Shown here: positions 3,644 through 41,451 of the stretch, piece after piece | Numbering within the stretch: position 1 is the first letter of the stretch | How the letters are laid out: each line of letters opens with the position of its first letter | NCBI GenBank assembly: GCA_964632215.1 | Contig: CAZWBG010000001.1 | Location: forward strand, 431,863 to 495,862 | Direction of reading: 5' to 3' | Length of the DNA stretch: 64,000 bases | Source of the DNA: an uncultured Candidatus Saccharibacteria bacterium | GTDB lineage: Bacteria > Patescibacteriota > Saccharimonadia > Saccharimonadales > UBA7683 | Notes under the pieces: model-generated | Database searches by the model: none | Told to the model about the DNA's origin: nothing | Seen by the model: the letters and a program-made list of their open reading frames with translations, nothing else | Position numbers and translations under genes: made by a program

Positions 3644-4849
3644 ATGCCTTATAATTCACGCGTCAAACGACGTACTTCATACGGTGGTCAAAACCGCCGT
3701 CCAAATAATAACAACCGCACCCGTAACCGTTCTGGTATGCGTGGTCAATATATTGATCCTGCACGCTTCGTACAAGCTGCTAAGGTTACCGAAGTTGAAG
3801 CATATGTGCCAAAGCACAACTTTGCTGACTTTGAAGTAGCCGAGCTTCTAAAGCAAAACATGATCGACAAAGGTTATGTAACACCTTCACCTATTCAAGA
3901 TCAGACGATCCCACTGGGTATTGAAGGTCGTGATGTGATTGGTATAGCCAACACCGGTACTGGTAAAACTGCCGCTTTTTGTGTACCTGTACTTGATAAG
4001 CTCATCAATAACCCTCACAGCAAAGTGCTCATTATTGCCCCAACTCGTGAGCTTGCTCAACAGATTGAGGAAGAATGCCGTTCTATTGCCAAAGGTAGTG
4101 GTCTCTTCGGTGTATTACTGATTGGTGGAACGCCAATGGGTCCTCAACTTCGTGACCTCCGCTCTAAGCCACGTGTCGTAATTGGTACACCAGGACGTGT
4201 AAAAGATCACCTTGAGCGCGGTACTTTACACCTACAAACCTTTAACCTCGTTGTTTTAGACGAAGTTGACCGAATGCTCGACATGGGCTTCTTGCCAGAT
4301 ATGCGCTTTATTCTTGATAGTCTTAATGAAAAACGTCAGTCGTTCTTCTTCTCGGCTACTATGGATGCCCGCGTTAGCCAGTTGATTGAATCATTTGCGA
4401 ATGATCCTGTCACGGTTTCTGTAAAGACGAGTGCTGCGAGTGAAAACGTACATCAAGATGTCGTTCACTACATCTCAAGAGAAGATAAGATTGAAAAACT
4501 ACACGAAGTCTTACTACAAGATGCTGTTGAAAAAGTTATCATCTTCGACGAAACACAGCGCAGCGTAGAACGCCTGAGTAAAGAACTGCTCGACCGTGGT
4601 TTTGCAACAGATGCCATTCATGGTGGTAAATCTCAAGGCCAACGTCAGCGTGCCCTTAAGCGCTTTAAGCAAACTGATATCGATATTCTGGTTGCTACTG
4701 ATGTAGCCGCTCGTGGTATTGACGTAGTTGATATCACCCACGTGATTAACTACGCCCTACCTCAGTCTTACGAAGACTACACCCACCGTGTTGGTCGCGC
4801 AGGACGAGCCGGACGTACTGGTCACGCCCTAACCTTCGTTACGAAATAG
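3644..4849 (+). CDS. DEAD-box ATP-dependent RNA helicase
   Basis: Q motif/PTPIQ-like SPIQ, ANTGTGKTAAF (motif I), PTRELA, VLDEVD (motif II variant), SAT, and HRVGRAGRAGR (motif VI). There is a basic N-terminal tail. Confidence 0.9.
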   Translation: MPYNSRVKRRTSYGGQNRRPNNNNRTRNRSGMRGQYIDPARFVQAAKVTEVEAYVPKHNFADFEVAELLKQNMIDKGYVTPSPIQDQTIPLGIEGRDVIGIANTGTGKTAAFCVPVLDKLINNPHSKVLIIAPTRELAQQIEEECRSIAKGSGLFGVLLIGGTPMGPQLRDLRSKPRVVIGTPGRVKDHLERGTLHLQTFNLVVLDEVDRMLDMGFLPDMRFILDSLNEKRQSFFFSATMDARVSQLIESFANDPVTVSVKTSAASENVHQDVVHYISREDKIEKLHEVLLQDAVEKVIIFDETQRSVERLSKELLDRGFATDAIHGGKSQGQRQRALKRFKQTDIDILVATDVAARGIDVVDITHVINYALPQSYEDYTHRVGRAGRAGRTGHALTFVTK

Positions 4850-9525: not shown

Positions 9526-11679
9526 TTATGTATTAGCTAGCAGTGTTAAGGGTGCAAAAGAAGCGTTAAGCTTCTTAACACCGCGGCCACTAAAGGCGAT
9601 GGAAAGCATGTCGCCGTCTATTTCCACCACTGTACCGATGCCGAAGAGTTGGTGCTGTACTCGGCTGCCAATTTCTACATCAATATCTGGCTCAGGCACA
9701 ACTTGCGGCTCACTCGACATAACCCGTGGCTGAAAATATGGCTCCATGGTTGTTTGGGTATCAAGTAAGGTACTGTCAATATCGCTCAAGAAACGTGAGG
9801 GTGGATTATGCAGCGTATTACCGTAAAGCATACGAGCGTTAGCATGGTATAAAAAGAGTTCTTCGCGGGCTCGTGTCATACCAACATAACAAAGTCGCCG
9901 TTCTTCTTCCATTTCGGTAGCATCAAACAAAGCACGAGAATGCGGGAAGATTGATTCTTCCATGCCAGCCAGGAAAACCACTGGGAATTCAAGCCCTTTA
10001 GCAGCATGTAGTGTCATCAGCGTTACGGCATCTGAGTTGGCATCAAGACCATCTAAATCTGATATCAGTGCTACTTCTTCTAAGAATCCATCCAGACCAA
10101 CACCGTCATATTCACGAGCGACACTGATGAGCTCTTTAGTGTTTTCTATCTTCTCACCAGCCTGCACAGTGCCGTCGTCTAGCCATTCTTGGTAGCCACT
10201 GCGGCGAATCACGGCTTCTACAAACTGTGAAACTGGCAAGGTGTCTTTTTGGGCACGCAGATCAATTAACAAGTTACTGAGGTCGGTTAAGCCCTTGAAA
10301 GCCTTACCACTGACTTCGGTACAAGCCTGCACCTGGTTTAGGGCATGTTCCAGAGTTAAGTCTTGCTGAGCTTGCCAAGTAAAAAACTTCTCGAGACTGC
10401 GGGCACCAACACCGCGAGTTGGTGTATTAACAATGCGCAGAAAACTGGTGCGATCATTTGGCTGGTAGATCAATCGTATGTAGCCAAGTAGGTCTTTAAT
10501 TTCTTTACGATCGTAAAAACGTACACCGCCAACTACCCGATACGGTACCCCATAACGAAGGAAGGCTTCTTCCAGACTTCGGCTTTGGGCATTCGTACGA
10601 TACAAAATTGCGAAATCATTATACGAACGAACACGTAGATCTACCTGAGATTTAATCTTGGTAATAATACTCTCACCCTCGTGATGCTCGCTCTGCACAC
10701 TCACAATTTGCACAGGAGCACCAGCACCGCTTTCGGTCCAGAGGGCTTTGTCGGAGCGCTGTTCATTTTTGGTAATAACCATATGCGAGGCATCAAGAAT
10801 ATTCTTTGTGCTACGGTAATTTTGCTCTAACTTAATAATTTTGGCGCCCGGGAAATCTCGTTCAAAGTTTAAAATATTACGAAAATCAGCTCCACGCCAT
10901 GAATAAATCGACTGCCAATCGTCTCCCACGACACATAAGTTCTGTGATTCATTCAAAAGTAATTTAATAAGTTTATACTGCGCCGCATTGGTGTCTTGGT
11001 ATTCGTCTACCATGATGTGGCTAAACTGCTGCTGCCACTTTTCACGAATCTCAGTATGGTTAACAAGCATCGCCACTGTTCGACCAATTAGATCATCAAA
11101 ATCCAGCGCTCCAGCCTCACGCAGACTGCGTTCGTAGAGTGGAAATATTTGGGCCGCAACCTTTTGGGCTGGTAGAGTTGCCGTACCCGCATAGGATTCG
11201 GGTGAAATAAGCTCATTTTTAGCACCGCTAATCATATTGCCGATACTACTAGGCTTAAATTGCTTTTCGTCTATAAAAAGGGTCTTGCAGGCTTGTTTTA
11301 TAGCACTTTGGCGATCAGATTCGTCAAAAATCACGAAGTTTTTAGGTATACCAATACTCTCGCCGTCTTGGCGTAAAATCCGCACACAAATACCGTGAAA
11401 GGTACCCATGTAGGGCATGAAGCTACGGTGGATATCTCCACTCGAGCCTTCCTGAGTGAGTTCCCACACCCGCTGACGCATTTCTTTAGCCGCCTTATTG
11501 GTAAACGTCACCGCCAAAACACTGTATGGGCTCACGCCCTGAGCTAAGAGATGCGCAATACGATGCGTAAGCGTCTTGGTTTTACCACTACCAGCTCCAG
11601 CCAGAATAAGTACCGGTCCGGTGGTTTGTTCAACTGCTGCTTGTTGGTTTTTGTTTAAGCCTTCTAATAAGTTCTTCAC
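9526..11679 (-). CDS. pcrA: UvrD/PcrA-type ATP-dependent DNA helicase
   Basis: LILAGAGSGKTKTLTHR (motif I), VDEYQDTN (motif II), TLHAAKGLEF, and CYVGMTRARE. The GTG start has TATACT 6 nt upstream. Confidence 0.9.
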   Translation of the reverse strand: MKNLLEGLNKNQQAAVEQTTGPVLILAGAGSGKTKTLTHRIAHLLAQGVSPYSVLAVTFTNKAAKEMRQRVWELTQEGSSGDIHRSFMPYMGTFHGICVRILRQDGESIGIPKNFVIFDESDRQSAIKQACKTLFIDEKQFKPSSIGNMISGAKNELISPESYAGTATLPAQKVAAQIFPLYERSLREAGALDFDDLIGRTVAMLVNHTEIREKWQQQFSHIMVDEYQDTNAAQYKLIKLLLNESQNLCVVGDDWQSIYSWRGADFRNILNFERDFPGAKIIKLEQNYRSTKNILDASHMVITKNEQRSDKALWTESGAGAPVQIVSVQSEHHEGESIITKIKSQVDLRVRSYNDFAILYRTNAQSRSLEEAFLRYGVPYRVVGGVRFYDRKEIKDLLGYIRLIYQPNDRTSFLRIVNTPTRGVGARSLEKFFTWQAQQDLTLEHALNQVQACTEVSGKAFKGLTDLSNLLIDLRAQKDTLPVSQFVEAVIRRSGYQEWLDDGTVQAGEKIENTKELISVAREYDGVGLDGFLEEVALISDLDGLDANSDAVTLMTLHAAKGLEFPVVFLAGMEESIFPHSRALFDATEMEEERRLCYVGMTRAREELFLYHANARMLYGNTLHNPPSRFLSDIDSTLLDTQTTMEPYFQPRVMSSEPQVVPEPDIDVEIGSRVQHQLFGIGTVVEIDGDMLSIAFSGRGVKKLNASFAPLTLLANT

Positions 11680-11712
11680 TTGTCTAGTATAGCAAAAACC
11701 TTGTGCTCCAGC

Positions 11713-12645
11713 CTAGAAAGAAAGTGCAACTGAGTCGTGTGTTAGCACGAAGTAAATTCCACCAGCCGCAATACCCACGAGCAGCAATAAGACGATCCAT
11801 GTCCAGCGCTTCTTGCGGCCAAGAGTTGACCAGTCATGCAAAGCCGGATGATACTCGTTTGTATCAAAAACTGTTGGCTTTTGTGGAGTGGCCGATACTT
11901 TACGGTCTTCTGGTACTGTATCTTTTGCTAAACTGTTAGCCCACGAGTCAGGAGACTGCTCAGCTTCTTGAGTAGCAGGCGCATCAACCGCAACACTATG
12001 CGCCTGTATCGACTGTTGTTCTTTTTTATCAGGTACTACTGACTCTACGGCATCTTCATCTGACGGTGCAGCAGGCAAAGGCTCTTGTTGGTAATCTTTA
12101 AAACTTAAAGCTGCGTGCGAAGCAGGTATCACCTCTTGAGAATCTTTAGCAGTAGGCTCTTTGCTCGGTACAGCATTAGTTTCTTTTTCTGCAACAGATG
12201 AAACCTCGGTTTCTGGTACATCTACCTCTTCCTCAAGTGCCTTAGCTCGTAGCGTACCTGCGCTATGAGCAGTAATAATAGCTGGTGCACTGGCAGCACG
12301 TGAAGGCTCATCCTTGGTATCAGCAGGGAGGCGTTTATCCGCAGGGGCAGAAAGTAGCTGGATCGGCTCCTGACTCTTATGGGTGGCTGTTGGCGCAGCC
12401 GTTTCTCTCATGAGAGGCTTTAAGCTGCCTGCTTTGTGCCCGGGGTGGATAATATCGAAACTTCTACCCTTAGTAATGTGAGTGGTGGATTTTTTAGCGT
12501 TTTTCTTGGGAAGTACTGGTTTCTTTTTTTGAGAATTTGCACTACCAAGCAAGGCTTCAGTTTGCTGGGCTAACTCACTAACAGCCTGGTCGAGTGTCGT
12601 AAAATCTGTGGGCTTTGGTTTCTTACTTTTTCTCGTCAATTTCAT
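11713..12645 (-). CDS. Low-complexity protein with C-terminal membrane anchor
   Basis: 310-aa ORF, basic and Pro/Ala/Glu-rich, with a single C-terminal hydrophobic helix (WIVLLLLVGIAAGGIYFVL). It lies 10 nt downstream of tpiA. Confidence 0.5.
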   Translation of the reverse strand: MKLTRKSKKPKPTDFTTLDQAVSELAQQTEALLGSANSQKKKPVLPKKNAKKSTTHITKGRSFDIIHPGHKAGSLKPLMRETAAPTATHKSQEPIQLLSAPADKRLPADTKDEPSRAASAPAIITAHSAGTLRAKALEEEVDVPETEVSSVAEKETNAVPSKEPTAKDSQEVIPASHAALSFKDYQQEPLPAAPSDEDAVESVVPDKKEQQSIQAHSVAVDAPATQEAEQSPDSWANSLAKDTVPEDRKVSATPQKPTVFDTNEYHPALHDWSTLGRKKRWTWIVLLLLVGIAAGGIYFVLTHDSVALSF

Positions 12646-17517: not shown

Positions 17518-18327
17518 TCAGACGAAACCGTCGGTGAGTGCAGCCACCTCGTCAAACCGCTTCTTGATTTCTGGCAACCCAGCAGTGCCGTCGCGGTAAG
17601 CCTGCTTGGACATATCCACTTCGCCAAAACGCAGTCGGCCAGAGTCGCTGTCGATGACATCAGCCACCAACAGCTCACCAGTCTCCCGATCGATACCGCA
17701 CTCGATCTTGAAATCGATGTAGACACCACCGACTTTGGCCCAAGCCTTCTCGATGATCTTGAAGGTCCGAAGCGTGAGGGTATGCAGCTGCTCGTACAGA
17801 TCAGCGGTGATATCGGCATACCTCAAATCCAGCGGCTCTTCCCTGAAGAGGTCACCCGCTTTCGCGATGCCACTATATTCCTTAGCTGCCTTGCTGTTGG
17901 GTACATACTCCCGCAGCCTGTTGTTCTCGAAGTCAAATTCCAGTAGCGGATCGTGCATGATGTCGTCCTTCTCGAAGACCTCAAACACGAGATCTTCGAA
18001 CAACATACCATCGGGCAAGTCCGGGAATCGATCCCGATAGCTGCCTGTGGCGTAGCGCCGAGCGATAAGCTCGAGTGGAATCATCTGCACGTTGCGTGCT
18101 CGGAAGGTGGTGTCGTCGACACGCTCCACGAAGTGTGTGCGTACCCCATGCTGCTCGAGCAACTCGAAGATATTGCAGGTAGTCCGCGTAGACGCGGCCG
18201 CCTTACCTTCGAGTACGTCATGCTTGGCCCCATCACCAGCGGTGATGTCGTCTTTGCTGACCACCAACACGGTACCGTCACCGGCATCACGGATGATCTT
18301 TGTCTTACCTTCGATGATAACTGACAT
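17518..18327 (-). CDS. purC: SAICAR synthetase (PurC)
   Basis: N-terminal EGKTK.I, LIARRYATGS, and IDFK.E.G with VADVI..DS.R. It is G+C-rich. Confidence 0.8.
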   Translation of the reverse strand: MSVIIEGKTKIIRDAGDGTVLVVSKDDITAGDGAKHDVLEGKAAASTRTTCNIFELLEQHGVRTHFVERVDDTTFRARNVQMIPLELIARRYATGSYRDRFPDLPDGMLFEDLVFEVFEKDDIMHDPLLEFDFENNRLREYVPNSKAAKEYSGIAKAGDLFREEPLDLRYADITADLYEQLHTLTLRTFKIIEKAWAKVGGVYIDFKIECGIDRETGELLVADVIDSDSGRLRFGEVDMSKQAYRDGTAGLPEIKKRFDEVAALTDGFV

Positions 18328-18328
18328 G

Positions 18329-18811
18329 TCAGTCCTCCACTGGTGGAAGTTGGGGTTGTTTGTTGTTCTCTCTTAGGTATTGCTGGAGACTCTGCGAGAG
18401 CTGCCTGTTGTTGACACTCAAGGCAGTAGCCAGAGCGAGTGCTGCTTGCTTCAGGCCACGTTCGCCATTAGCAAAACACGGAACCGGAACCCCGGGTGCA
18501 GTCTGCATGATGGAATCCGCACCAAAATTGTCCAAGGGAACCCCGAAAACAGGCTTGGGGATGGAATTTCCAGTATTCAGGTGACCAGCGATGGCCCCGG
18601 GAAGTGCAGCGGCCAAACCGGCAGTACCGATAAAACCGTCAAAGTCATCGGCGTGGTCATCCAGCCACTGGCTGAGTTCACGGCCGTTACGATGAGCTGA
18701 CACGAAGCCAACATACACCGTGATACCGACTGCCTCAAGTAGGGCTTGTACCCCACTTCCGTCGATGAACTTTTGATCACTCGGGCTACCAGCAAGAATT
18801 GCAACACGCAT
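18329..18811 (-). CDS. purE: PurE-family (N5-)carboxyaminoimidazole ribonucleotide mutase
   Basis: The start at MRVAILAGSPSD is internal to ORF 18329..18877. Motifs include SAHRNGRE and GTAGLAAALPG..AG followed by PV.GVP. Its stop is 1 nt from the purC start. It is G+C-rich. Confidence 0.75.
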   Translation of the reverse strand: MRVAILAGSPSDQKFIDGSGVQALLEAVGITVYVGFVSAHRNGRELSQWLDDHADDFDGFIGTAGLAAALPGAIAGHLNTGNSIPKPVFGVPLDNFGADSIMQTAPGVPVPCFANGERGLKQAALALATALSVNNRQLSQSLQQYLRENNKQPQLPPVED

Positions 18812-18971
18812 GTGTCCACTCTCTCTCAGTTTCGTCGAATAATAGGTGAAAAGGTTCGGCAGCAAATCAACCACCAAGCCTAAGCCCTGGATTGATAACT
18901 ACTGGCTAAATCTTGACATAACGAGTTATTTATTACAAGCACAAGCAATAAGAACTTGCCCAAAAAGTACT

Positions 18972-19403
18972 TTAAGACACTGCATTTGAAGAATCACGAA
19001 TGTCATGTTCGGATGTAAAGCGTAAATAGTAGCCAGCAGGGTCAACAATCCTGAAATCCCATAGTCCCCAAGGTTGCTCAATGAGTGGCTCAACAATCTC
19101 TGCCACTCCCTTTACGCTGTCATAGTAGCCACCTATATCTTCAACCACAACAACAATCTCTACACCATAACCACGTGGTGTATCTGATGGGAAACGACTA
19201 AAATATGTCTGGTCATACACATACTGGTTCCCACCCCAAAAACATAAAGTATTTCCTTCAAGTTCTATAACTAAATAACCTTTGGTCTTTTCTGGCTTAC
19301 GTTCCCAGAGTACTTTAAATCCAAGATTAAGATAGTACTCTTTAATAGGTTCAAAGTTATCTACGTGCAGTTCAAGTTGGAGCTTATTCGAAGATTTATC
19401 CAT
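18972..19403 (-). CDS. VOC / glyoxalase-bleomycin-resistance fold protein
   Basis: Size and paired beta-alpha-beta-beta-beta style blocks (HVDNFEPIKEYY..LGF; VVVEDIGGYY; FRIVDPAGYYLRF). TATTAT lies 6 nt upstream of the ATG. Confidence 0.6.
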   Translation of the reverse strand: MDKSSNKLQLELHVDNFEPIKEYYLNLGFKVLWERKPEKTKGYLVIELEGNTLCFWGGNQYVYDQTYFSRFPSDTPRGYGVEIVVVVEDIGGYYDSVKGVAEIVEPLIEQPWGLWDFRIVDPAGYYLRFTSEHDIRDSSNAVS

Positions 19404-19607
19404 ACTATCATAATAGCAAAAAGCCTCTATGTAGAGACTTTTATGTATAACGAAAATGTGACCCCCTCCCCACCCGATTTTTAACTCTATAGTGGCGGAG
19501 ATAGTTCGTTGGAACGATACAATTCGTAATGTAGGTGTTCAGCTATCCCCTATGGAGACAATATGATGTGTACTCGTCATATTCCTTAATAGAGTAGAAC
19601 CTTCATA

Positions 19608-20156
19608 CTATTTGCCAAGAATCCTTTTTCGGTATTCATCAGCCATCATAAACGAAGTTGTGTCGCTAACATGGTCGACAAATAACACGCCGTTAATATG
19701 GTCGGTTTCATGTTGAACAACTTGTGCAACAAAACCACCGATTACCTCTTCCCTACTTTTTGCATGTTCATCGAGCCAGGTAACTTTTACTTGTTCATAA
19801 CGAGGGAGTTGAGCGAAAAGAATGTCATCTTCCGTCCCACAACTCACACAACCTTCCCACATATCTATGAGTTCACCGAACGTTTCAACAATCTCAGGAT
19901 TAATAAGAACCGTGTAGAATGGTTCAAGCTCAGGGCGATTAGGTGTTGGCTTAATGCCTATAACGCTCAGGGCTATGCTTTCACCGACTTGAGGCGCAGC
20001 AATGCCAACGCCATACTTCTTCTCGATAAGCGTGTAGCGCATATTTTTAATGAGTGATTGAGTATCACTTGATAGGATTTCATCTTCGCTTAAGCGTCGA
20101 GCTGTTTCACGAAGTACGGGATTACCGAACCGAATAATGGGAAGGATTTCAGTCAT
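19608..20156 (-). CDS. def: Peptide deformylase
   Basis: GVGIAAPQVG, EGCVSC, and QHETDHINGVLF. TGCTATGAT lies 6 nt upstream of the ATG. Confidence 0.9.
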   Translation of the reverse strand: MTEILPIIRFGNPVLRETARRLSEDEILSSDTQSLIKNMRYTLIEKKYGVGIAAPQVGESIALSVIGIKPTPNRPELEPFYTVLINPEIVETFGELIDMWEGCVSCGTEDDILFAQLPRYEQVKVTWLDEHAKSREEVIGGFVAQVVQHETDHINGVLFVDHVSDTTSFMMADEYRKRILGK

Positions 20157-20171
20157 ATCCCTATCATAGCA

Positions 20172-20206
20172 AAAAAAGAATCGAACTTATTATCAGATGA
20201 GAAAAA
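20172..20206 (-). repeat. Decayed copy of the tRNA-Glu 3' half (candidate distal att scar of the island)
   Basis: aaaaagaatcgaact--tattatcag-atgagaaaa aligns by eye with aaggagaatcgaactcctattgccaggatgaaaac of tRNA-Glu (26031-26066). AGAATCGAACT is an exact 11-mer. The rest is degenerate with two small gaps. Confidence 0.35.
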
Positions 20207-20403
20207 GCGCCTAACTTTCAAAGGTGAAAATAAGACGCTCGTTCTAATCTGTAATTCTCCTCTGGTGAACTATGTGAAGTCGAAATTGAACGCAATCTGT
20301 ACTGAACTACTAGAGGTATACAGCTACATGAGAGCTATAACAGCGACAGAATACATTCTCTCTTAGAGTAGAACTATATGTAAAATACCTTATACAATAA
20401 GGT

Positions 20404-21621
20404 ATGCCTGATTTCAAATACAATCACTACGTGCCAGAATGGTATCAAAAGAATTTTGTTCTACCTGACTCTCCTCAAGGCAAGTATCACTATTTGAGAT
20501 TAAAGCCCGAAGAGTTTCGTGATTCTAAAGGCAGAATCCATTATGCAAACCCCTTAAAGAAACGCCACCCTAGCAGATGTTTTGCTGAGGATGATTTGTA
20601 TACAACTCGATTTAGCGGGTTAGAATCACGTGATATTGAGCGGATATTCTTCGGTGCCATAGATACCAAAGGCAAAGAAGCGGTAGAGCACTTCGCAAAT
20701 TATGAGTGGCCTAACTGGGAGGGAGACCCACTTTACGCCTTGATGAAGTATATGACTACACAGCGTATCAGAACTAAAAAGGGCTTAGACTGGCTTGCTG
20801 ACCAGATTCAAGCAAATAGCACTAATGAGCTACTGATGAAAATGGTTCAGCTCCAAGATGTTTTCAGTGCGATATGGACAGAATGTATTTGGCAGATAGT
20901 AGATGCTTCAGAGTCAAATACAAAATTTATCGTTTCAGACCACCCAATAACAATCTATAATCGTGAACTTGGTCCTAACCAACCGACTTGGTGCAAGGGC
21001 TTCAGAGACCCAGATATTCGCATGGCTGGATCGCATACTATATTTCCGTTAAACCTTGATAAAGCCCTCATCTTTACCAATCTTAACTGGGTAAGAAATC
21101 CTTACCAGTCAGCTAAGAATTTTCGTCCAAATCCTGGTTTTTATCGTGATACCGTGTTTGACTTCCATAGACTTCAACTGGACAGAAAGCTATCTGAGCT
21201 AGAAGTGAAGCAACTAAACTTCATCATAAAAAGCAGAGCTTATCAGTTCATTGCGGCAGGTAAAGAAGAGTGGCTTTACCCTGAGCGTGAAATATCTAAA
21301 TCAGACTGGAATAGATTTGGTGCGGGACTACTATGTATGCCTGATCCTAGGTCTCTACACTACGGTGGAGAAGTTTTTGCTGGCAGTAAGAGCGGTCCAA
21401 GTTGGGCATTCGATGCTTATGGCAGAAAGCCAGGCGACCCCATGTTTGGAAAAGACGATGCACCCACGGACTTGAGCAAAAGTCCGCTCTATCGTTTTCA
21501 GGGTGACTTTGCACGTAAGTTCGGTAAGCAAAGACGTGGTGTATCTATGGAAATGGGCGACTTACATTCTGGCGAAGATTCAGACTCTATGCACGAGTAT
21601 CATCTTACTCTCGGACTATAA
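20404..21621 (+). CDS. DUF4238-family protein (candidate single-gene anti-phage factor)
   Basis: N-terminal HYVPEWYQKNF matches the DUF4238 signature (HyvPqfyLrnF). The protein is 405 aa. TACAAT lies just upstream of the ATG. Confidence 0.6.
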   Translation: MPDFKYNHYVPEWYQKNFVLPDSPQGKYHYLRLKPEEFRDSKGRIHYANPLKKRHPSRCFAEDDLYTTRFSGLESRDIERIFFGAIDTKGKEAVEHFANYEWPNWEGDPLYALMKYMTTQRIRTKKGLDWLADQIQANSTNELLMKMVQLQDVFSAIWTECIWQIVDASESNTKFIVSDHPITIYNRELGPNQPTWCKGFRDPDIRMAGSHTIFPLNLDKALIFTNLNWVRNPYQSAKNFRPNPGFYRDTVFDFHRLQLDRKLSELEVKQLNFIIKSRAYQFIAAGKEEWLYPEREISKSDWNRFGAGLLCMPDPRSLHYGGEVFAGSKSGPSWAFDAYGRKPGDPMFGKDDAPTDLSKSPLYRFQGDFARKFGKQRRGVSMEMGDLHSGEDSDSMHEYHLTLGL

Positions 21622-22113
21622 TTACTTAGCCAACAAATCTCGAATAGTGTCGAGTGAAATCTCCACCCGAAAGTCCTTGATAAAAACGCCATCTGTAACT
21701 TCTGCGTCATTCATCCAGACTTTTTCAGGCACAGCCTTGTACATGTAGCGGATAGACTCACCCAGAAAAGTATCAGGCGACTGTTCAAAGTGAGAACCTT
21801 TTTTGATTCGCCTAACTTTTAGAATTTCTTCAGGGTCGCTTACTTGTTCTACGTTTGCCTGAATATAGACTCCTTCGCCATCACCCTCTGGAACTGTTGA
21901 GTCGTATATAACGATAAATACCCTTTTTTTCGCCGTAACATTTTTAGAGTGTTGTCCTTCTTTATCTGAAACCCAATAGATATTCAGGTCATTATCGTAC
22001 TCGTGAGCAACTGGGCTATTCCAAGGTAAGCCTTCGGGAGTAACGGTTGCTAAAGTTGCATATCTAATTTGCTTAATCATCTCTGATGCTCGTTTGTCGT
22101 GATATTCGCTCAT
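21622..22113 (-). CDS. Pyridoxamine 5'-phosphate oxidase-like FMN-binding protein
   Basis: ATLATV..G.PW.SPV...D..L.IYW.S....HSKN pattern of the PNPOx/general-stress-26 fold. Confidence 0.6.
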   Translation of the reverse strand: MSEYHDKRASEMIKQIRYATLATVTPEGLPWNSPVAHEYDNDLNIYWVSDKEGQHSKNVTAKKRVFIVIYDSTVPEGDGEGVYIQANVEQVSDPEEILKVRRIKKGSHFEQSPDTFLGESIRYMYKAVPEKVWMNDAEVTDGVFIKDFRVEISLDTIRDLLAK

Positions 22114-22547
22114 GCCTCGTAGACCTGTTTTGGTGCGTCTGGGAAATTAACTTCATCCCAAAGTGAGATTTTGGTTGGCTTGAATATCCAATAAGCACGA
22201 CCTGTTGGCTTGTGTTCTTTTATCTCATCTAGGTTGTAATCTTTGGCTCCAAACTTACCCTGGTATAGCTCATGTGCACGCTCTAGCTCTTCGTCTGAAA
22301 CTTCATAGGCATTGCCAATTACCTGTAGTGCTTGTTTGCGTTCAGTATCACGTACTACCGTTACAGCTACTTTTGAGTCGCTTGCAATTTCTACCGAGTG
22401 TTGGCGTTCACGAGCCGACATCCAGTACAGGTTAAAATCATCATCGGCTACAAAATATACTGTACAAATCCAAGGTTGCCCGTTATGAACAGTAGCGAGT
22501 TGCATGTGCTTGTTTTCGGTTAGGTATTGTTGGATTAAATCTTTCAT
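22110..22547 (-). CDS. Pyridoxamine 5'-phosphate oxidase-like FMN-binding protein (paralog)
   Basis: MQLATVHNGQPWICTVYFV.D.DFNLYWMS....HS. The start at MKDL forms an ATGA overlap with the RidA stop. Confidence 0.6.
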   Translation of the reverse strand: MKDLIQQYLTENKHMQLATVHNGQPWICTVYFVADDDFNLYWMSARERQHSVEIASDSKVAVTVVRDTERKQALQVIGNAYEVSDEELERAHELYQGKFGAKDYNLDEIKEHKPTGRAYWIFKPTKISLWDEVNFPDAPKQVYEA

Positions 22548-22915
22548 TTTTCGGCGACCACACTTATTTCTATTGTTGCTCCAAGTGGTAAGGCTTGAAC
22601 ACAAACAGCTTCACGTACTGGGAATGGTTCATTGAAGTATGTAGGGTAAACTTCATTGAGTTCTGGCATTTGTGCCATATCGGTAACGTATATAACAACC
22701 TTAACAATATCGTCTAAAGTAGCGTCAGCAGACTTCAAGATTTCAGAGATGTTTTGCATTATTTGTTCTACTTTTTCTTTTACAGTACCGTCAACAACCG
22801 TGCCATCTGGCTTACCATGTATTTGTCCTGAAACATAGATTGTACCGTTACTAATAATTGCTTGTGAGAGAAACGGAGCGTCTGGTGCATTAGGTGTAGT
22901 AGCTTGGGTTTTCAT
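22544..22915 (-). CDS. RidA/YjgF/TdcF-family reactive-intermediate deaminase
   Basis: SQAIISNGTIYVSGQI, LDDIVKVVIYVTDM, PVREAVCVQALPLGA.IEI. The start at MKTQ is internal to ORF 22544..22969. Confidence 0.75.
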   Translation of the reverse strand: MKTQATTPNAPDAPFLSQAIISNGTIYVSGQIHGKPDGTVVDGTVKEKVEQIMQNISEILKSADATLDDIVKVVIYVTDMAQMPELNEVYPTYFNEPFPVREAVCVQALPLGATIEISVVAEK

Positions 22916-23170
22916 AACAATATAATAACAGGGATAAAAAGCAAAATCCACAGGGATAGGTATTTGCACATTAAAGTTCCGAAAACCCGTCCTAGACGCT
23001 CTCTGAACGTTACAGAGGGTATCCTAAACGGTTCACTATTTCTATGAGGCGTTACCCTAGTTACCGTTCACAAGATTTTTCCTGAACTATTTACCCTCAA
23101 CGCCATTTTTCCGCCTACAATGTTCCTGCTTTATCTGACACTAAAACTCTTAAAAACAAAGCGAAAGCGA

Positions 23171-23416
23171 CTAGTTAATTTGAAAGGGTGTCAGAAAACT
23201 AAACACCACTTTATTCTGGTTGTTATGAGCTTCTTCCATCTTTTCTGCGAATACTTCGTTCCCTAAATAGCGATAGTAAGTATCCCTTGAAATTCCTGCA
23301 TATCTACAGGCTTCGGTAATAGTAGCGTTGTGCTGGATCGAGTCAGCTAACTTAATCATGGTTGAATAGCTTATTTTAGTTGGTCTTCCAATGGCTTTAG
23401 TGATTACCATATTCAC
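23171..23416 (-). CDS. Small helix-turn-helix DNA-binding protein
   Basis: GRPTKISY...ATITEACRYAGISRDTYYRYL is a resolvase/terminase-small-type HTH. It is divergent from the 23451 gene. Confidence 0.55.
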   Translation of the reverse strand: MNMVITKAIGRPTKISYSTMIKLADSIQHNATITEACRYAGISRDTYYRYLGNEVFAEKMEEAHNNQNKVVFSFLTPFQIN

Positions 23417-23450
23417 TCCTTTTTATTTTGGCATTACCTCTATTACTAGT

Positions 23451-24176
23451 ATGACAGACGCACTCCTTACCAACATTGGTGGATGCCTATGGGATAATGT
23501 TGAAATGGACTTCGTATATCAACAAATTGGTCTTAGTGATGACCCCCTACAAGAGACTGTCAGCAACCTTACCCTTGAAGTTCTGAATGAACTGCACGGC
23601 TACGCAGATAATCGCCCAATTAACATCAGTAGCGAATCGTATGATATGAACGAACTATCACGAGCATTGAAGTTACTTAAGCAAAACAAAATAATTTTGT
23701 ATAAGCAGCATGATAGTGAGTCATTTTATGGTTACAGAGTCGTTGTTATTAACAGATACAAATTTGAACTACTTTCAGCAGAATTAACATGGCTTGAAAG
23801 CCCGCAAGAAGAAAAAGACATCGACAATACCGCACCTTTTGCAGACTATGTTGTGTACTACGATGTAAACACTGGGGATATGCTCTTCAACGGTGTCCAC
23901 AAACGCCTCAAAAAAACCAACAAAGCATTATTTGATGCACTATTTTTAGCCTCTCCAAATTATGTAGACCGAAAGAAACTACTATCTATTCTTGGTACTA
24001 CTAAGAAAGATAAATCATCGAAGATTATTCTTAATGAAGCGGTCACAAATCTTCGTAAATTGTGTGGTGTCAAGAAGCATGTCATTCAATTGAGAAGCGA
24101 GGGTGGAAGACTTCGTAATGTGGAAACGCACCCATTATCTGCCCAAACGCCACCCCCTTCTTTTTTAACAGATTAA
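23451..24176 (+). CDS. Hypothetical protein with a possible C-terminal winged-helix (OmpR-like) DNA-binding region
   Basis: The C-terminal K.NKALFDALFLASPNYVDRKKLL..........EAVTNLRKL resembles the trans_reg_C pattern. The start is ambiguous (23391, 23451 or 23505). Confidence 0.35.
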   Translation: MTDALLTNIGGCLWDNVEMDFVYQQIGLSDDPLQETVSNLTLEVLNELHGYADNRPINISSESYDMNELSRALKLLKQNKIILYKQHDSESFYGYRVVVINRYKFELLSAELTWLESPQEEKDIDNTAPFADYVVYYDVNTGDMLFNGVHKRLKKTNKALFDALFLASPNYVDRKKLLSILGTTKKDKSSKIILNEAVTNLRKLCGVKKHVIQLRSEGGRLRNVETHPLSAQTPPPSFLTD

Positions 24177-24335
24177 ATTCCCGAAAAATACAGCCTTCAC
24201 CTCTGTTATATACTGCTTTTCTCCCGTGAGTAAAAACCTATTATTTAAGATAATTAGACTCAGGACAAGCACATAATTTTGAGGGTAACTGACATTTAGC
24301 TTGACCCGTCAGATACTCTCTGTCCGAGGTAAATA

Positions 24336-24530
24336 ATGGTAAAAGATACCATAACAGTCAAAGAAGCTAAAAAGCTCTTAGGGCAAAAAGCTAAAAACCT
24401 AACCAACGAAGAACTAATAGCGTTAGTTCAAGCTACTGAAACAGTAGTGAGAGTTTCCATTCGCTCTTACATTCGTTCGAAAAACGTCAATAATAATGCT
24501 AACATAACAAGTACAAGGACAATACTATGA
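24336..24530 (+). CDS. Small protein upstream of the recombinase (possible directionality/accessory factor)
   Basis: 64-aa ORF with GAGG SD. Its stop overlaps the recombinase start (ATGA). Confidence 0.4.
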   Translation: MVKDTITVKEAKKLLGQKAKNLTNEELIALVQATETVVRVSIRSYIRSKNVNNNANITSTRTIL

Positions 24531-26062
24531 AAAAAGCGGTCATTTATCTTCGTGTATCTACTACTAAACAAACAGAAGGAGCAAGCCTCGACACACAACA
24601 AAAGCTGTGTCAGGACTGGGCATCACGTAACGATGTGCTGGTTAAAGAAATCTACCACGATGACGGTGTATCAGCTAAAACCCTAGACCGTCCTGCTATG
24701 AAAGAAATGCTTGCATATTTAGAAGCAAACAAAGGGAGCATACAATATCTCATTACTTACCAAACTGACCGCTTGTCTCGCAATGCTACTGACTTTTTCG
24801 CACTACGAACTCTCTTGTCACAATTAGGTGTTGAGTATAAGAATGTCAACTCAAGCCTAGAAGATAGTGTTAATGAAGAGCTTATACAGAACATTGAAGC
24901 CGTTCTTGCTCAACACGACAACAAGATTAAATCTACTCGTGTAAGAGACAACATGAAAGCCCACGCAAAAGAGGGCTGGCGTATGAGTAAAGCACCTCAT
25001 GGTCTAAAAAACGTTAGAGACGTTCTAGAGAAGTCTACACTAGCACCAATAGAGGGGGTTGCTGATAAAGTAGCCACTATACTTGAAGCATACGCAACAG
25101 GTACGCACACCATAGCTGGCTTAATTAAAATGTGTGAGAGCATTGGTCTGAAATCTGCGAAAGGTAAACCTATACAGATACAAGCTATCAGTAAGATGTT
25201 GCGTAACCCAATTTATGCAGGGCTTGAACAGAGTAGTCATACGGAGGGTCAACTTGTACCCTCCAAATTTAAGGGGATCATTACCCCTGCGGTTTTCCAT
25301 CGTAATCAAGAACTACTGAAAAGCAATAAGAACACGGCTGCTACATATATGAAAAACAACCCTGAATTTCCTCTGAGACGCTTTATGTTGTGTGCGAATT
25401 GCAATAAACCCCTTACAGGCAGTAGCCCAGTTGGTGGCTCAGGCAAACGCTCTCCACGCTACCACTGTTCGAGGTGCCATATCCCATCCGTGCAATCAGG
25501 AGAGCTTCATGAACAATTCCTACATCTGCTTGCTTCGCTTGCTCCTGATCCAGATATGGAGAAGTTCCTTAAGGAGATAATAGTACGTGTCTGGCGTGAT
25601 GAAACACAAGCACTAGGCAATAAGCAGAAGAAGCTCCATAAGGTCCTAGAACAGCTCACAAAGAAAAGGAATAAAGTGGTCGAGATGCTTGTTGCTGGCG
25701 ATATAACAGTAGACGATAAGAAAGAGCTTGTTGCGAAGATAAAGAAAGAGGCTGACGCAATACGGGAAGACCTTGCGAGTATCGGGTCATTATCTGAACT
25801 AAAAACTGATGCAATCGACTATGCAATGCGTTTTATGTCGAACGCACCAAGAATATGGAGCAACGCCTCGATTGAACATCAAATAATCTACCAACGTCTA
25901 GTGTTTCCAGAAGGCATAGAATACGACCTGACTACAAATAAATTTCGAACGCCCAGATTAAGTGCACTTTACACCTTAGCAAGCATGAAAAAAGACCCAT
26001 CCATGACGAATGAGTCTCTTTTGGTGACCCCAAGGAGAATCGAACTCCTATTGCCAGGATGA
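24527..26062 (+). CDS. Large serine recombinase (resolvase N-domain + recombinase domain + zinc ribbon + coiled coil)
   Basis: VIYLRVSTTKQ carries the catalytic Ser. Other marks are QTDRLSRN, CANCNKPLTG...RYHCSRC and a C-terminal K/E-rich helix. The last 41 nt are tRNA-Glu sequence (..VTPRRIELLLPG*). Confidence 0.88.
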   Translation: MKKAVIYLRVSTTKQTEGASLDTQQKLCQDWASRNDVLVKEIYHDDGVSAKTLDRPAMKEMLAYLEANKGSIQYLITYQTDRLSRNATDFFALRTLLSQLGVEYKNVNSSLEDSVNEELIQNIEAVLAQHDNKIKSTRVRDNMKAHAKEGWRMSKAPHGLKNVRDVLEKSTLAPIEGVADKVATILEAYATGTHTIAGLIKMCESIGLKSAKGKPIQIQAISKMLRNPIYAGLEQSSHTEGQLVPSKFKGIITPAVFHRNQELLKSNKNTAATYMKNNPEFPLRRFMLCANCNKPLTGSSPVGGSGKRSPRYHCSRCHIPSVQSGELHEQFLHLLASLAPDPDMEKFLKEIIVRVWRDETQALGNKQKKLHKVLEQLTKKRNKVVEMLVAGDITVDDKKELVAKIKKEADAIREDLASIGSLSELKTDAIDYAMRFMSNAPRIWSNASIEHQIIYQRLVFPEGIEYDLTTNKFRTPRLSALYTLASMKKDPSMTNESLLVTPRRIELLLPG

Positions 26063-26096
26063 AAACCTGGTGTCCTAACCGTTAGACGATGGGGCC
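26022..26096 (-). tRNA. tRNA-Glu (anticodon UUC), CCA encoded
   Basis: Cloverleaf by eye: GGCCCCA tc GTCT aacggtta GGAC a CCAGG ttTTCat CCTGG caat AGGAG ttcgatt CTCCT TGGGGTC a CCA. Confidence 0.9.
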
Positions 26097-39123: not shown

Positions 39124-39200
39124 TATCCAATCATAACAAAAAAGACGCCCTAATAGGGAGTCTCTCCTAGTACTTATATCTGGAGGACTATAGTAGGCGC
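39124..39200 (-). repeat. Cassette junction unit R1
   Basis: Minus strand reads GCCTACTATAGTCCTCCA, then a spacer, then hairpin GAC.CCCT/AGGG.GTC with T6. TGTTATGAT follows, then 6 nt, then the ATG at 39123. Confidence 0.6.
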
Positions 39201-39210
39201 TATCGCAACT

Positions 39211-39531
39211 TTATTGAGAGCCCCAACTCATCAGGGCGCTAACAAACCACAAAACCAATAAACCCACGATTCCTGTTATTACACTAACCGTCAAAGCTGG
39301 GACGAAAATTACCTTCTTTCCCCTGTGTGCGAGAGCAAAGCCAAACAGCCCAGATGCTACTACGCACCCCAAGACAAACAGTAACGCTACCGTTTGAGGA
39401 GAGCCGTAAAAAGGCTTTGTTGAAGAGTAAATTTTACTCCAAATAACCGTCAAGCTAACGGTTGCTAAGTAAACTAACGTGCCGCAGTACGCAAGGACCT
39501 CTAGTTGTTTACTGGTGACTATTTTTTTCAT
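39211..39531 (-). CDS. Small membrane protein (3 predicted TM helices)
   Basis: 106-aa hydrophobic ORF. This is cassette 2. Confidence 0.5.
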   Translation of the reverse strand: MKKIVTSKQLEVLAYCGTLVYLATVSLTVIWSKIYSSTKPFYGSPQTVALLFVLGCVVASGLFGFALAHRGKKVIFVPALTVSVITGIVGLLVLWFVSALMSWGSQ

Positions 39532-39621
39532 TAGTATTAACTATAGCAAAAAAGACGCCTCAAATTAAGAAGTCTTTCATGGTGCCTATGCCTGGAAGGA
39601 CATAGTAGAGTTTATCAGGAT
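39532..39621 (-). repeat. Cassette junction unit R2
   Basis: Minus strand reads TCCTGATAAACTCTACTATGTCCTTCCA, then GGCATAGGCACCATG. AAAGAC..GTCTTTTTT follows, then TGCTATAGT, then 8 nt, then the ATG at 39531. Confidence 0.6.
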
Positions 39622-39637
39622 AAAATTGTGATGAGTG

Positions 39638-40087
39638 CTACAAATATCCGAGGTTTTGCAGAGTTGTCTTAATTGGAGGGGTTAGGGTCAGTTTTGTAAG
39701 TCTCGATATAGGATGCCAGGCTGCTTCGACAATATCGTCATCGCAACTTATGGCTATTTCGGTTGCTGGCTTGTTAGCATACACAGTAAAATCATAGAAC
39801 GTCATAGCCACCATTACTCTTTCATTTGTATCTCGTAAAACCTTTTCGCTTTCACCAGTTAGTACGGTATTTAGCAATTTTACTTTGTAGGGCGTGATAT
39901 CAATTCCAACTTCTTCGATCGTTTCTCGAATGGCAGCCTGAAGCTTTGTTTCACCTTCTTCAATACCACCACCTGGAATTATCCACGAATCTTTGTAGAC
40001 TCCACCTTTGCGGCTTTTTCCAAGCAGGAGTTGATTATCGTTAGAGAAAATAAAGGTACCAACTATATCTCGATGAATTGTTCGCAT
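39638..40087 (-). CDS. Nudix hydrolase
   Basis: Nudix box GGGIEEGETKLQAAIRETIEEVGIDI. This is cassette 3. Confidence 0.8.
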   Translation of the reverse strand: MRTIHRDIVGTFIFSNDNQLLLGKSRKGGVYKDSWIIPGGGIEEGETKLQAAIRETIEEVGIDITPYKVKLLNTVLTGESEKVLRDTNERVMVAMTFYDFTVYANKPATEIAISCDDDIVEAAWHPISRLTKLTLTPPIKTTLQNLGYL

Positions 40088-40177
40088 TAGCTTATTATAC
40101 CAAACAAAAAAGTCTCTCTGATGAGAAGTCTTTCATAGTGCTTATGTTTGGAGGGACACGGTGGAACTTATCAGGAC
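40088..40177 (-). repeat. Cassette junction unit R3
   Basis: Minus strand reads GTCCTGATAAGTTCCACCGTGTCCCTCCA, then AACATAAGCACTATG. A weak hairpin with T6 follows, then TGGTATAAT, then 6 nt, then the ATG at 40087. Confidence 0.65.
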
Positions 40178-40194
40178 AAAGCTAATCGCAATGC

Positions 40195-40842
40195 CTAGGC
40201 CCGCAGTTTTATATCAAGTTGTTCCAGAAGAAATACATGAAACTCAGTCATGAATGGATTCCAGAGCATATGGGGGCGTTTGTGTTTTACGATGGTTTCA
40301 ATTATTTTATCTGGCTCAATGCCTACATATTCTTTATATCGCCACTTAGTAATTTCAGGTGGCATTAAGTAGTCAATAATATCTGGGTTGATTTTATCAA
40401 TTGATTTTGCGAATTTTGCCGATTTACTAGACTTTGTTTCGGCATCATCGTAAATATCATGGTATATAGGATTAAGGAGCCCGAGAGCCGCTTCTCGCTC
40501 TGTTATATGAGAGTCGACTTTTTTAGTAAATACCATTTCATCACCTGTGATTAGCTCTCCGATGTCATGAATCGCCATCATTATTAACGACTGACCCAAG
40601 TCAACATCCGAATCCTTAACGTAAGGATATAATGCAGTACCAAGCATAGGTAATGAGCCGACATGCTCTATGAGTGTTTCCCGCACTATGTCATCGTCAG
40701 GATGGTAATTGTATCCTTTGAGCTGTTCTTGTGCGACTTTCAGTAGGTACGGCTGTGTAGTGGCTCGTCGTTCAAGCGAGTAGTGCTCGAACAAGAATTC
40801 AATCTGATCTAGTATCTCTTGCATGCTTGGTACTTTGGGCAT
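40195..40842 (-). CDS. HD-domain phosphohydrolase (YfbR-like 5'-nucleotidase type)
   Basis: E.LIEHV......G...... followed by AIHDIGELITGDE. This is cassette 4. Confidence 0.65.
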   Translation of the reverse strand: MPKVPSMQEILDQIEFLFEHYSLERRATTQPYLLKVAQEQLKGYNYHPDDDIVRETLIEHVGSLPMLGTALYPYVKDSDVDLGQSLIMMAIHDIGELITGDEMVFTKKVDSHITEREAALGLLNPIYHDIYDDAETKSSKSAKFAKSIDKINPDIIDYLMPPEITKWRYKEYVGIEPDKIIETIVKHKRPHMLWNPFMTEFHVFLLEQLDIKLRA

Positions 40843-40932
40843 GCATTAATCATACCAAACAAAAAGACCTCTCGGATGAGAAGTCTTTCATGGTGCTTAT
40901 GTTTGGAGGGACACAGTGGAACCTATCAGGAC
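40843..40932 (-). repeat. Cassette junction unit R4
   Basis: Minus strand reads GTCCTGATAGGTTCCACTGTGTCCCTCCA, then AACATAAGCACCATG. AAAGACTTCTC-atcc-GAGAGGTCTTT with a T-run follows, then TGGTATGAT, then 6 nt, then the ATG at 40842. Confidence 0.65.
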
Positions 40933-40950
40933 TAGTATTATGCGATCTTG

Positions 40951-41376
40951 TTACAATTCAGAACGTATTTTCATCCATAATTTGCCGAGTTGATTTTCGC
41001 CGCCTCCATCCTTACCTCGACCCCAAAATTCATCAACAGGCGAATCCTCGGCAATTTCTTCGTCACCGCTTTTAACCAATGCATCACGGACTTCCTGGTG
41101 TTGATCAAGCTTTGCCCGAAGGATGGATTCCATTACTGACAGCTTTTTTGCACTCCAGTCAGAATCTTTTGCTGACTCATACTTCTGGTTACTAACTTCT
41201 TTGGCAAGCAACGGACTCTTTGCTGCTATTATTTCTCGTTTTCCGTCAGGATCAGTGCATTTAGCAGCTTGAAACGCGTGCTCACTCGTTGGATACAGAA
41301 CTCCATTAATTTCTACCGCATTAGCCGAGAAATTATTCAGAACATCGTACCACTGGCCGTAGAAATAAATAGGCAT
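40951..41376 (-). CDS. NADAR (YbiA/DUF1768) domain protein
   Basis: IYFYGQ...LNNFSA..VEINGVLYPTSEHAFQAAK plus a C-terminal ENQLGKLWMKIR. This is cassette 5. Confidence 0.75.
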   Translation of the reverse strand: MPIYFYGQWYDVLNNFSANAVEINGVLYPTSEHAFQAAKCTDPDGKREIIAAKSPLLAKEVSNQKYESAKDSDWSAKKLSVMESILRAKLDQHQEVRDALVKSGDEEIAEDSPVDEFWGRGKDGGGENQLGKLWMKIRSEL

Positions 41377-41451
41377 AAATTTATTATAACAAAAAAGACG
41401 CCTCTGATGAGAAGTCTTTCATGGTGCTTATGCTTTGGAGGTCCATCGTGC
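41377..41451 (-). repeat. Cassette junction unit R5
   Basis: Minus strand reads GCACGATGGACCTCCA, then AAGCATAAGCACCATG. AAAGAC..GTCTTTTTT follows, then TGTTATAAT, then 6 nt, then the ATG at 41376. Confidence 0.6.

Follow-up and report, generated by a model that had tools for sequence, protein, structure and literature searches.

How can the gene of a recombinase end inside a tRNA gene that remains intact, and which of the two has supplied the sequence that they share? The question is raised by a locus of an uncultured Candidatus Saccharibacteria bacterium, located within a stretch of 64,000 nucleotides (contig CAZWBG010000001.1 of assembly GCA_964632215.1, positions 431,863 to 495,862 of the forward strand; hereafter, the window), where an open reading frame (ORF) for a large serine recombinase (LSR) runs into an oppositely oriented gene for tRNA-Glu(UUC). 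A preliminary description, made from the DNA of the window alone, interpreted the locus as an integrative island at tRNA-Glu that is mobilised by the recombinase. The present analysis supports such an island and leads to a different account of its ends. We consider it highly probable that the locus is an element of a large LSR family of Patescibacteria, integrated at the CCA end of tRNA-Glu and carrying its attachment site (attP) inside the integrase gene (int). It is a well-preserved representative of a large variant of LSR elements that appears to be undescribed.

A serine integrase read into a tRNA gene

The int ORF (24527–26062) extends 41 nt into the antisense strand of tRNA-Glu(UUC), and its TGA stop (26060–26062) overlaps the complement of the anticodon (26061–26063); ARAGORN, Rfam and the ORF coordinates all bear out this overlap, which was the starting point of the preliminary description. 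Residues 1–500 of the integrase are encoded by the element, and the final 11 residues (501–511, TPRRIELLLPG) are an antisense reading of the acceptor stem, the T-arm and the anticodon stem. A promoter-like site for tRNA-Glu is present at 26176–26148 (10 of 12 matches, with TG). A Logan contig from the same genome (L083) ends at window position 26062, within the anticodon loop; this break probably reflects tRNA sequence common to other Saccharibacteria in the sample and says nothing either way on an empty site.

The N-terminal part of the protein (residues 4–150) matches the Resolvase domain (PF00239, E 6e-27), and its Y7-R9-V10-S11 motif, with the serine nucleophile, is near-invariant in the alignment of the int family. 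A Recombinase domain (PF07508, E 2.5e-7) is also present, along with a zinc ribbon that scores below the cut-off of PF13408 (E 0.0014) and has its Cys289, 292, 314 and 317 conserved in the same alignment. The AlphaFold2 (AF2) model of a relative that naturally occurs in a long form (P0021) has a pLDDT of 89 and contains long helices at 342–389 and 395–423; in Foldseek, it matches over its full length the integrases of SPbeta (E ~1e-20), Bxb1 (~1e-17) and phiC31 (~1e-14). By all sequence and fold criteria tested, the model included, the protein classifies as an LSR, and it is predicted to join attP with the tRNA's 3' end (attP x attB activity).

The displaced end of the integrase gene

At identities as low as 28%, about 100 homologues of the integrase have C-terminal peptides that are tRNA T-arms read backwards (e.g., ..PRRIELRLPG, ..PRGIEPLLPG and ..PTGFEPVLPP). 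Some 15 homologues carry, after a conserved ..ESLLV, a different and mutually similar tail (e.g., P0078, ..LVNYVKSKLNAICTELLEVYSYMRAITVAEYIPA). The same tail is found in the window 5.7 kb upstream of the int stop, where the frame read from 20262 gives LVNYVKSKLNAICTELLEVYSYMRAITATEYILS and a stop codon. P0078 and P0021, two integrases of the long form, have C-termini that match this displaced segment, which at the DNA level is 92–94% identical to the same segment in L001, L005, L006 and L008.

The connection between the two ends is seen directly in a public contig (L003) that is colinear with the window at 24360–26027 and then continues directly with 20256–20379, i.e., contains the ends of the element joined. 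Past the 6-bp core, this joined form contains no tRNA-like sequence. The attP site lies within the int ORF, integration splits the gene, and in the joined state the tail belongs to the protein.

The ends of the element

When the window is aligned with L005, L006 and L008, the order at attL is host-specific sequence, TGGTGA and conserved element sequence, and that at attR is the conserved end of int, TGGTGA and the tRNA. The start of the element at 20263 follows from BLAST homology to L001, L002, L005, L006 and L008, and a DNA profile of the P' arm matches 20263–20327 (E 6e-16), the sole significant match within the window. The hexamer, the reverse complement of positions 71–76 of tRNA-Glu (TC-A-CCA), is the only sequence common to attL, attR and the joined, attP-type contig, and is the crossover core; in the attB of the window, it is surrounded by an 8-bp inverted repeat, but such symmetry finds no echo in the B' arms of 20 genomes, which are unconserved. 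In related elements, similarity ends exactly at the core, the tRNA side being variable between hosts and the int side constant. The element has no long terminal direct repeats, its att sites sharing the short core alone (6 bp here), and the segment 20263–26027 is a single integrated copy of 5,759 bp.

These boundaries bear on the model of the preliminary description, in which the crossover lies in the anticodon loop, the element supplies the 3' half of the tRNA, and the displaced, decayed half at 20172–20206 forms the left end of an island of about 5.9 kb. The size is close to the ~5.8 kb found here, and the similarity is there as well: the stretch, in the correct orientation, resembles the T-arm and the anticodon arm beyond local chance; it contains AGAATCGAACT without a mismatch, and 25 of the 30 columns of its alignment match tRNA-Glu, with two gaps. 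Within the 106-nt spacer between def and attL, such similarity is unlikely by chance (P ~0.0002–0.0007 vs shuffles); the stretch ranks first among the 2,402 sub-windows of the 64 kb, and multiplying the local P by 2,402 gives ~0.5 such matches expected window-wide. Its role as a boundary does not hold, given that it lies 57 nt outside the attL core and that the homology it would have to delimit, seen in four other elements and in two contigs of the joined form, begins at 20263 rather than at 20172. Furthermore, the far end carries the displaced int tail instead of a tRNA fragment, the joined form lacks tRNA-like sequence after the core, host variation lies on the tRNA side with the int side constant up to TGGTGA, 26 of 30 other attL/attR pairs have their core at the CCA end, and Rfam calls no tRNA in 20140–20290. 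We give the anticodon-loop model next to no credence.

A T-arm cannot be duplicated by an LSR that crosses over at the CCA end. The stretch at 20172–20206 overlaps the 3' arm and U-run of a host hairpin (see below), and a comparable relic is present at only one of 24 other loci; it may have been left by some earlier event of another kind, or be due to chance. It was also considered as a tRNA pseudogene and rejected, its 5' half being dissimilar to the tRNA and no Rfam match being obtained. The tRNA itself is host-encoded throughout, and the element supplies nothing past the six shared bases.

A scheme for integration

Under the account that we favour, i.e., an LSR element with attP inside int, the LSR would recombine attP with the extreme 3' end of the tRNA (TCACCA of tRNA-Glu(UUC)), which stays host-encoded. 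In the joined form, whether circular or tandem, int encodes ~532 aa, with a conserved helical tail (VN..xS(K/N)WNxI..E(L)..(W/V)Y...R). Integration cuts the ORF after Val500 and adds 11 antisense-tRNA codons, up to the TGA in the anticodon loop, and the 32-codon tail remains at the far end, within attL. On the opposite strand, the last ~40 nt of int give a hairpin and a U-run after the CCA, which would replace the displaced terminator of the tRNA. The empty site, or excision junction, is predicted to read ...AATTCTCCTC-TGGTGA-CCCCAAGG..., and the empty attB ...GTAATTCTCCTC-TGGTGA-CCCCAAGGAG...; a circle (or tandem) junction would have 26021 fused to 20269 across TGGTGA.

The tail as protein segment and as half-site

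The tail remnant is open for 28–51 codons in all 20 tRNA-Glu elements examined, with the common pattern VN.(L/V).S(K/N)WN.I..E(L)..(W/V)Y...R......IP. Synonymous differences amount to 0.38 in the first 10 tail codons vs 0.67 further out; the low synonymous change near the core fits constraint at the DNA level because this segment doubles as the P' half-site. The dN/dS ratio is ~0.56–0.6 in both parts (synonymous sites being saturated), indicative of modest purifying selection, and the tail helix in the AF2 model of P0021 (502–524) has a pLDDT of 54–77.

With the same boundaries, it is tenable, if in our judgment somewhat less than probable, that the C-terminal exchange is without effect on the protein, the tail reflecting only DNA constraint on the P' half-site. 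Both forms of Int would then act alike, and a separate factor, such as the product of the 64-aa ORF just before int, would set the direction. The constrained synonymous sites in the first 10 codons, the dN/dS of ~0.6 and the modest confidence of the tail model all agree with this possibility, as do the coincidence of the WN motif with the conserved TGGAAC of the P' arm, the resemblance of the P' arm to the tRNA T-loop (TCGAA, at +12 in the former and at +13 in the tRNA arm) and the conservation of a small ORF just before int in 24 loci. It is harder to reconcile with a tail that stays open in 20 of 20 elements, with an amphipathic pattern (E-L, W/V-Y, R, I-P) that lies 31–81 nt from the core, past the usual 25-bp half-site, and with the retention of the tail pattern in relatives at ~30% identity. 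We infer that the tail matters for int activity and that the long and short forms of Int differ in activity.

The tail/P' module (window 20269–20379; L001 1697–1813) has 92–94% DNA identity in elements whose integrases are only 43–80% identical, suggesting either exchange of modules at the core or a strong dual constraint on this segment.

A probable terminator overprinted on int

The P arm consists of the final ~40 nt of int and forms an inverted repeat beside an A-run. Read on the tRNA strand, it is ACCA-AAAGAGACUCAUUCGUCAUGGAUGGGUCUUUUUU, a 15-bp hairpin followed by U6 that starts from the 3' terminus of the tRNA. A hairpin with a U-tract, at a median of 3 nt past the tRNA end, is found at 47 of 67 loci, compared to 2 of 67 shuffles and 3 of 67 int-internal controls. 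The antisense hairpin is conserved, with 36 different stem sequences and with encoded amino acids that vary by lineage. Of 62 distinct sequences, 51 give a more stable structure on the tRNA-sense strand (Wilcoxon P 2e-8), the asymmetry that G-U pairs would produce if selection acts on the tRNA transcript.

The host hairpin that formerly lay 3' of the tRNA, on the B' side, is now stranded at attL, and a native terminator occupies the same position at the empty tRNA-Glu site of a related genus (L085) and in most host-side (B') arms. The element appears to swap the displaced terminator of the tRNA for one written into the coding sequence of int. This hairpin would end transcription of the tRNA, preserve the formation of its 3' end and shield int from antisense read-through.

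Generality of the family

A scan with the family alignment against one genome per species returned 79 loci. An antisense tRNA is present at the 3' end of int in 66 of these (39 Glu, 12 Ala, 5 Lys, 5 Arg, 4 Leu and 1 Asn); 5 loci run off the contig, and 8 are without a tRNA at this position. The coding overlap, which the preliminary description singled out as an oddity, is the normal integrated state of a large family with an int ORF that spans attP. The hosts are mostly Saccharibacteria or other Patescibacteria, and a few are metagenome-assembled genomes labelled Omnitrophota, Verrucomicrobiota, Terriglobales, Smithella or Gammaproteobacteria.

At roughly 40 loci, a tail-coding remnant is found on the same strand, 3–8 kb upstream of int. 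Thirty attL/attR pairs have a tRNA and also a tail remnant that can be mapped; in 26 of them, what attL and attR have in common begins at the tRNA CCA end (offset 0 or -1), and for these the shared core is 6–12 nt long and the element size 2.95–7.8 kb. The cores follow the tRNA, with TGGTGA for Glu, ATGGTACACC for Arg, TGGTGGGCGAGA for Leu-CAA, TGGTGC for Leu and TTGGTGGAC for Ala.

The viral contigs searched contain only distant int relatives (35% identity or less), so the family shows no sign of being phage-borne; one of these relatives (L090) also overlaps a tRNA, namely, tRNA-Phe. In an incomplete library of the literature, we found neither this family of Patescibacteria nor the antisense terminator described, and no account of an LSR whose ORF spans attP.

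Occupancy, mobility and tandem arrays

In a contig from a related genus (L085), in which the flanking histidine kinase (HK) is 64% identical, the gene order is HK ... UmuD-UmuC-tRNA-Glu-(NUDIX)-PK-PGK, without the recombinase; the relatives lacking the island that the preliminary description had asked for are represented by these flanks, at the level of a related genus. In L006 and L008, attL adjoins the gene for pyruvate kinase (PK), and the left flanks vary between genomes. Four genes of the window, namely, purC, purE, a glyoxalase-like gene and def (17518–20156), separate pyruvate kinase from attL. The purC/purE segment has a GC content of 54% vs 45% for the window, and the segment 17518–20156 may have entered earlier at the same tRNA; no significant older att debris was detected in the spacers between PK and purC, purE and the glyoxalase-like gene, and the latter and def.

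The long-tail integrases that are found in chromosomal contigs belong to tandem arrays (L088, L029 and L087). In L088, the older int is split into two ORFs, is probably a pseudogene and continues into another element from the left, the int of which abuts tRNA-Glu. Judging from these three arrays, an occupied site appears to accept further insertions. Repeat insertion at an occupied site is unexpected under the standard site rules of LSRs and fits the unconserved host-side arm. The element would still be active. Distal sites consisting of a terminator, TGGTGA and a P' arm are located 0.5–1.4 kb past the proximal attL in L011, L014, L020, L022, L028, L029 and L161, and one JGI contig contains an attP-type junction with only ~40 nt of int remaining; these cases suggest a recurrent kind of unit in the family that lacks int and has att-like sites at its ends.

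Several points weigh against our account. An empty site was not found in the same species: the flanking histidine kinase has only identical copies (three contigs), which are uninformative because they end inside the tRNA, and its next relative is 67% identical. The excised circle, for which the preliminary description also called, was not found either, and a metagenome scan for attP-type junctions gave a single match (L161), which is an int-less junction and not a circle. There are no terminal overlaps in the joined-form contigs L001–L003, so that circularity is not demonstrable from them; since several long-tail integrases are located in tandem arrays on the chromosome, we infer the free form and have not seen it as such. 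The B' arm of attB, on the host side, is unconserved across 20 genomes, which is unusual for LSRs. Finally, the dN/dS of the tail and the pLDDT of its helix make for weak support of a role at the protein level.

The lack of a circle and of a same-species empty site, together with the compactness of patescibacterial genomes, could also be taken to mean that the recombinase is a fixed, non-mobile and domesticated neighbour of tRNA-Glu and the overlap a by-product of genome compaction. This appears very unlikely to us in view of the related genus that has the same flanks without the recombinase, the varying left flanks, the six tRNA identities used by the family, and the existence of tandem copies and joined junctions. 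Moreover, the cargo differs among elements with common int and tail modules (restriction–modification (R-M) in L003, ParE in L088, Mrr in L087).

Cargo and backbone genes

The features of the element and of its surroundings are collected in Table 1. The cargo genes listed by the preliminary description, i.e., DUF4238, two PNPOx-like proteins and RidA, are all identified by Pfam inside the island. The RidA-like protein matches the C-terminal part of PADLOC PD-T4-2_B (E 1e-16), which is a domain-level hint, and PADLOC annotates nothing else in the cargo as defence. In related elements, L003 encodes a DNA methyltransferase with a DPPY motif and a possible partner endonuclease (3–689 and 3646–4029), L088 a ParE toxin (201–473) and L087 an Mrr-type nuclease (11620–12207); given this content, the cargo is often defence- or addiction-related.

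Of the divergent helix-turn-helix (HTH)/winged-helix pair that had been proposed, the HTH gene stands, and it is kept at the same place in 11 related loci; the product resembles the N-terminal HTH of the small terminase subunit (terS; PHROG E 2.6e-9), again a domain-level hint. The winged-helix assignment of the 261-aa ORF could not be upheld, and this ORF has no relatives in the other loci compared. The small ORF said to be coupled to the recombinase is present and overlaps the start of int. An ORF that ends just before the int start is found in 24 related loci, down to ~32% int identity, with a spacing that ranges from the ATGA overlap in the window to ~60 nt elsewhere, which makes the 64-aa ORF a candidate accessory or directionality factor. 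Among the nine ORFs in the window's element, there are no genes for a replication module (primase, helicase, polymerase) or for phage packaging, apart from the terS-like HTH.

Table 1. Features of the tRNA-Glu element and of related sites in the window
Feature	Coordinates	Strand	Basis
tRNA-Glu(UUC), host-encoded target, intact, CCA encoded	26022..26096	-	ARAGORN; Rfam 62 bits
LSR, integrated short form, 511 aa	24527..26062	+	Resolvase, Recombinase, Zn-ribbon domains (Pfam); PHROG integrase 249 bits
Displaced int 3' end, 32 codons NYVKSKLNAICTELLEVYSYMRAITATEYILS + stop; also P' arm of attP	20268..20366	+	translation; tail hidden Markov model E 3e-11
attL core TGGTGA, left element end	20263..20268	.	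host-specific sequence leftward, conserved element sequence rightward (window, L005, L006, L008)
attR core TGGTGA	26022..26027	.	tRNA nt 71-76 (TCACCA), minus strand
Intrinsic-terminator-like hairpin + U6, directly 3' of tRNA CCA, in last int codons (KKDPS...NESLL); also P arm of attP	25986..26021	-	fold -21.9 kcal/mol, z -3.3
Host hairpin formerly 3' of tRNA (B' side), now at attL	20192..20253	-	fold -31 kcal/mol, z -4.0
tRNA-like stretch, outside element, not a boundary	20172..20206	+	alignment to tRNA-Glu
Cargo, DUF4238 protein, 405 aa	20404..21621	+	Pfam PF14022, E 2.5e-16; no PADLOC match
Cargo, PNPOx-like protein, 163 aa	21622..22113	-	Pfam PF01243, E 8e-12
Cargo, PNPOx-like protein, up to 164 aa, start probably later	22110..22604	-	Pfam PF01243, E 5.5e-13
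Cargo, RidA/YjgF-family protein, up to 141 aa	22544..22969	-	Pfam PF01042, E 2e-31
Backbone, small HTH protein, 81 aa, divergent from int operon	23171..23416	-	weak HTH matches; PHROG E 2.6e-9
261-aa ORF, element-specific	23391..24176	+	no Pfam, NCBIfam, PHROG or PADLOC match
Backbone, 64-aa ORF overlapping int start (ATGA)	24336..24530	+	no family match
tRNA-Lys array, cores	39181, 39593, 40149, 40904, 41436, 42199, 42370, 43123, 43291		

An att-like array at tRNA-Lys

Elsewhere in the window, the region 39126–43367 contains eight direct copies of an att-like module in addition to tRNA-Lys(CUU) itself, all of them with TGGAGG(G) (the 3' end of tRNA-Lys in reverse complement). Translated in frame, the left arms that are best preserved give TKQKDLSDEKSFMVLMFGG followed by TQWNLSG, that is, the C-terminal motif of int and then the start of the tail, and hence are attP-type junctions without the body of int; each left arm is also a hairpin with a U-run on the minus strand. 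Five of the units are 412–763 nt long and hold one minus-strand gene each, and two of ~170 nt hold no gene. The array reads as an accretion of int-less cassettes or int-deleted elements, which would be integron-like with LSR-type sites. A segment inside it (42440–42930), with 61% GC and overlapping ORFs on both strands, looks foreign to the 45% GC genome.

A more far-reaching and rather doubtful reading would join these observations to those at tRNA-Glu: the left att arms would carry little specificity, attR would stay a usable target, the isoform of Int would set the direction, and arrays of cassettes would result. With an unconserved B' arm and a P arm that is essentially a terminator, integration would not differ from excision as a reaction on DNA; tailed, full-length Int would come only from the joined ORF and tRNA-tailed Int from the integrated one. 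Insertion time and again at a tRNA end that is always available, also of int-less, single-gene units that carry only a terminator, a core and a P' arm, would build integron-like arrays, of which the one at tRNA-Lys would be an example.

Significance and comparison with known systems

Serine integrases are the main tools for the insertion of large DNA. To our knowledge, few mobile elements have been recognised in the small genomes of Saccharibacteria. The family described here is a broad LSR clade that targets the universally conserved CCA end of tRNA genes and appears to require little from the other half of attB. With attP located within int, the C-terminus of the enzyme records the state of integration and might serve as a switch of direction, and the terminator overprinted on the coding sequence would keep the target tRNA working. 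We view the family as a main vehicle of gene flow in Saccharibacteria, with a cargo that includes R-M systems, toxins and small metabolic genes.

The element resembles the serine integrases of phages and integrative and conjugative elements (phiC31, Bxb1, SPbeta SprA, A118/LI and TP901-1) in its resolvase, recombinase and zinc ribbon domains and long coiled coil, in the full-length structural match, and in having a short core, no long direct repeats and int beside the att site. In contrast to these systems, it targets the CCA end of a tRNA gene, its attP lies inside the int ORF so that the C-terminus is altered by integration, the host-side arm of attB is unconserved in the family, the occupied site appears to accept more insertions, giving rise to tandem arrays, and the elements are small (3–8 kb), without phage or conjugation genes.

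The view has been that serine integrases avoid tRNA genes as natural targets (PMC7192596). In the TIGER survey, t(m)RNA genes are the location of 14 of 297 S-Int islands, and such use of t(m)RNA genes by serine integrases is stated to be one that "has not been reported previously" and needs proof (PMC7192596). The phiRSM element, cited in the same paper, uses a small serine recombinase (S-Core, without the C-terminal domain of LSRs). In the study of Prochlorococcus, an LSR is present in only 27 of 937 tycheposon-type elements (bioRxiv 10.1101/2020.12.28.424599). The element is similar to tycheposons in being small, cargo-carrying and site-specific at a tRNA gene, and unlike them in being without a replication module of its own or phage-packaging genes. 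The available portions of the texts on TIGER, tycheposons and phiRSM make no mention of an ORF spanning attP or of an antisense terminator.

With the tRNA islands of tyrosine integrases of the Islander type (Williams, 2002; Hudson, 2015; cited in PMC12884075), the element shares the tRNA target, the preserved function of the target gene, the location of int at the tRNA-proximal end and tandem accretion. Unlike these islands, it has a serine recombinase as the sole recombinase, shares only 6–12 bp between its ends and leaves no displaced tRNA fragment at the far end; the gene is kept by a crossover at its very end and an imported terminator, not by rebuilding. A parallel to the split gene is found in the SSV-type (type I) integrases of archaea (PMC8371274), in which attP is also inside the int ORF, the target is also a tRNA gene and int is also partitioned. 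The SSV-type enzymes are tyrosine recombinases of archaeal viruses and plasmids, whereas the LSR described here loses its last 32 residues and keeps an open ORF of 511 aa, so the likeness is one of analogy and not of membership.

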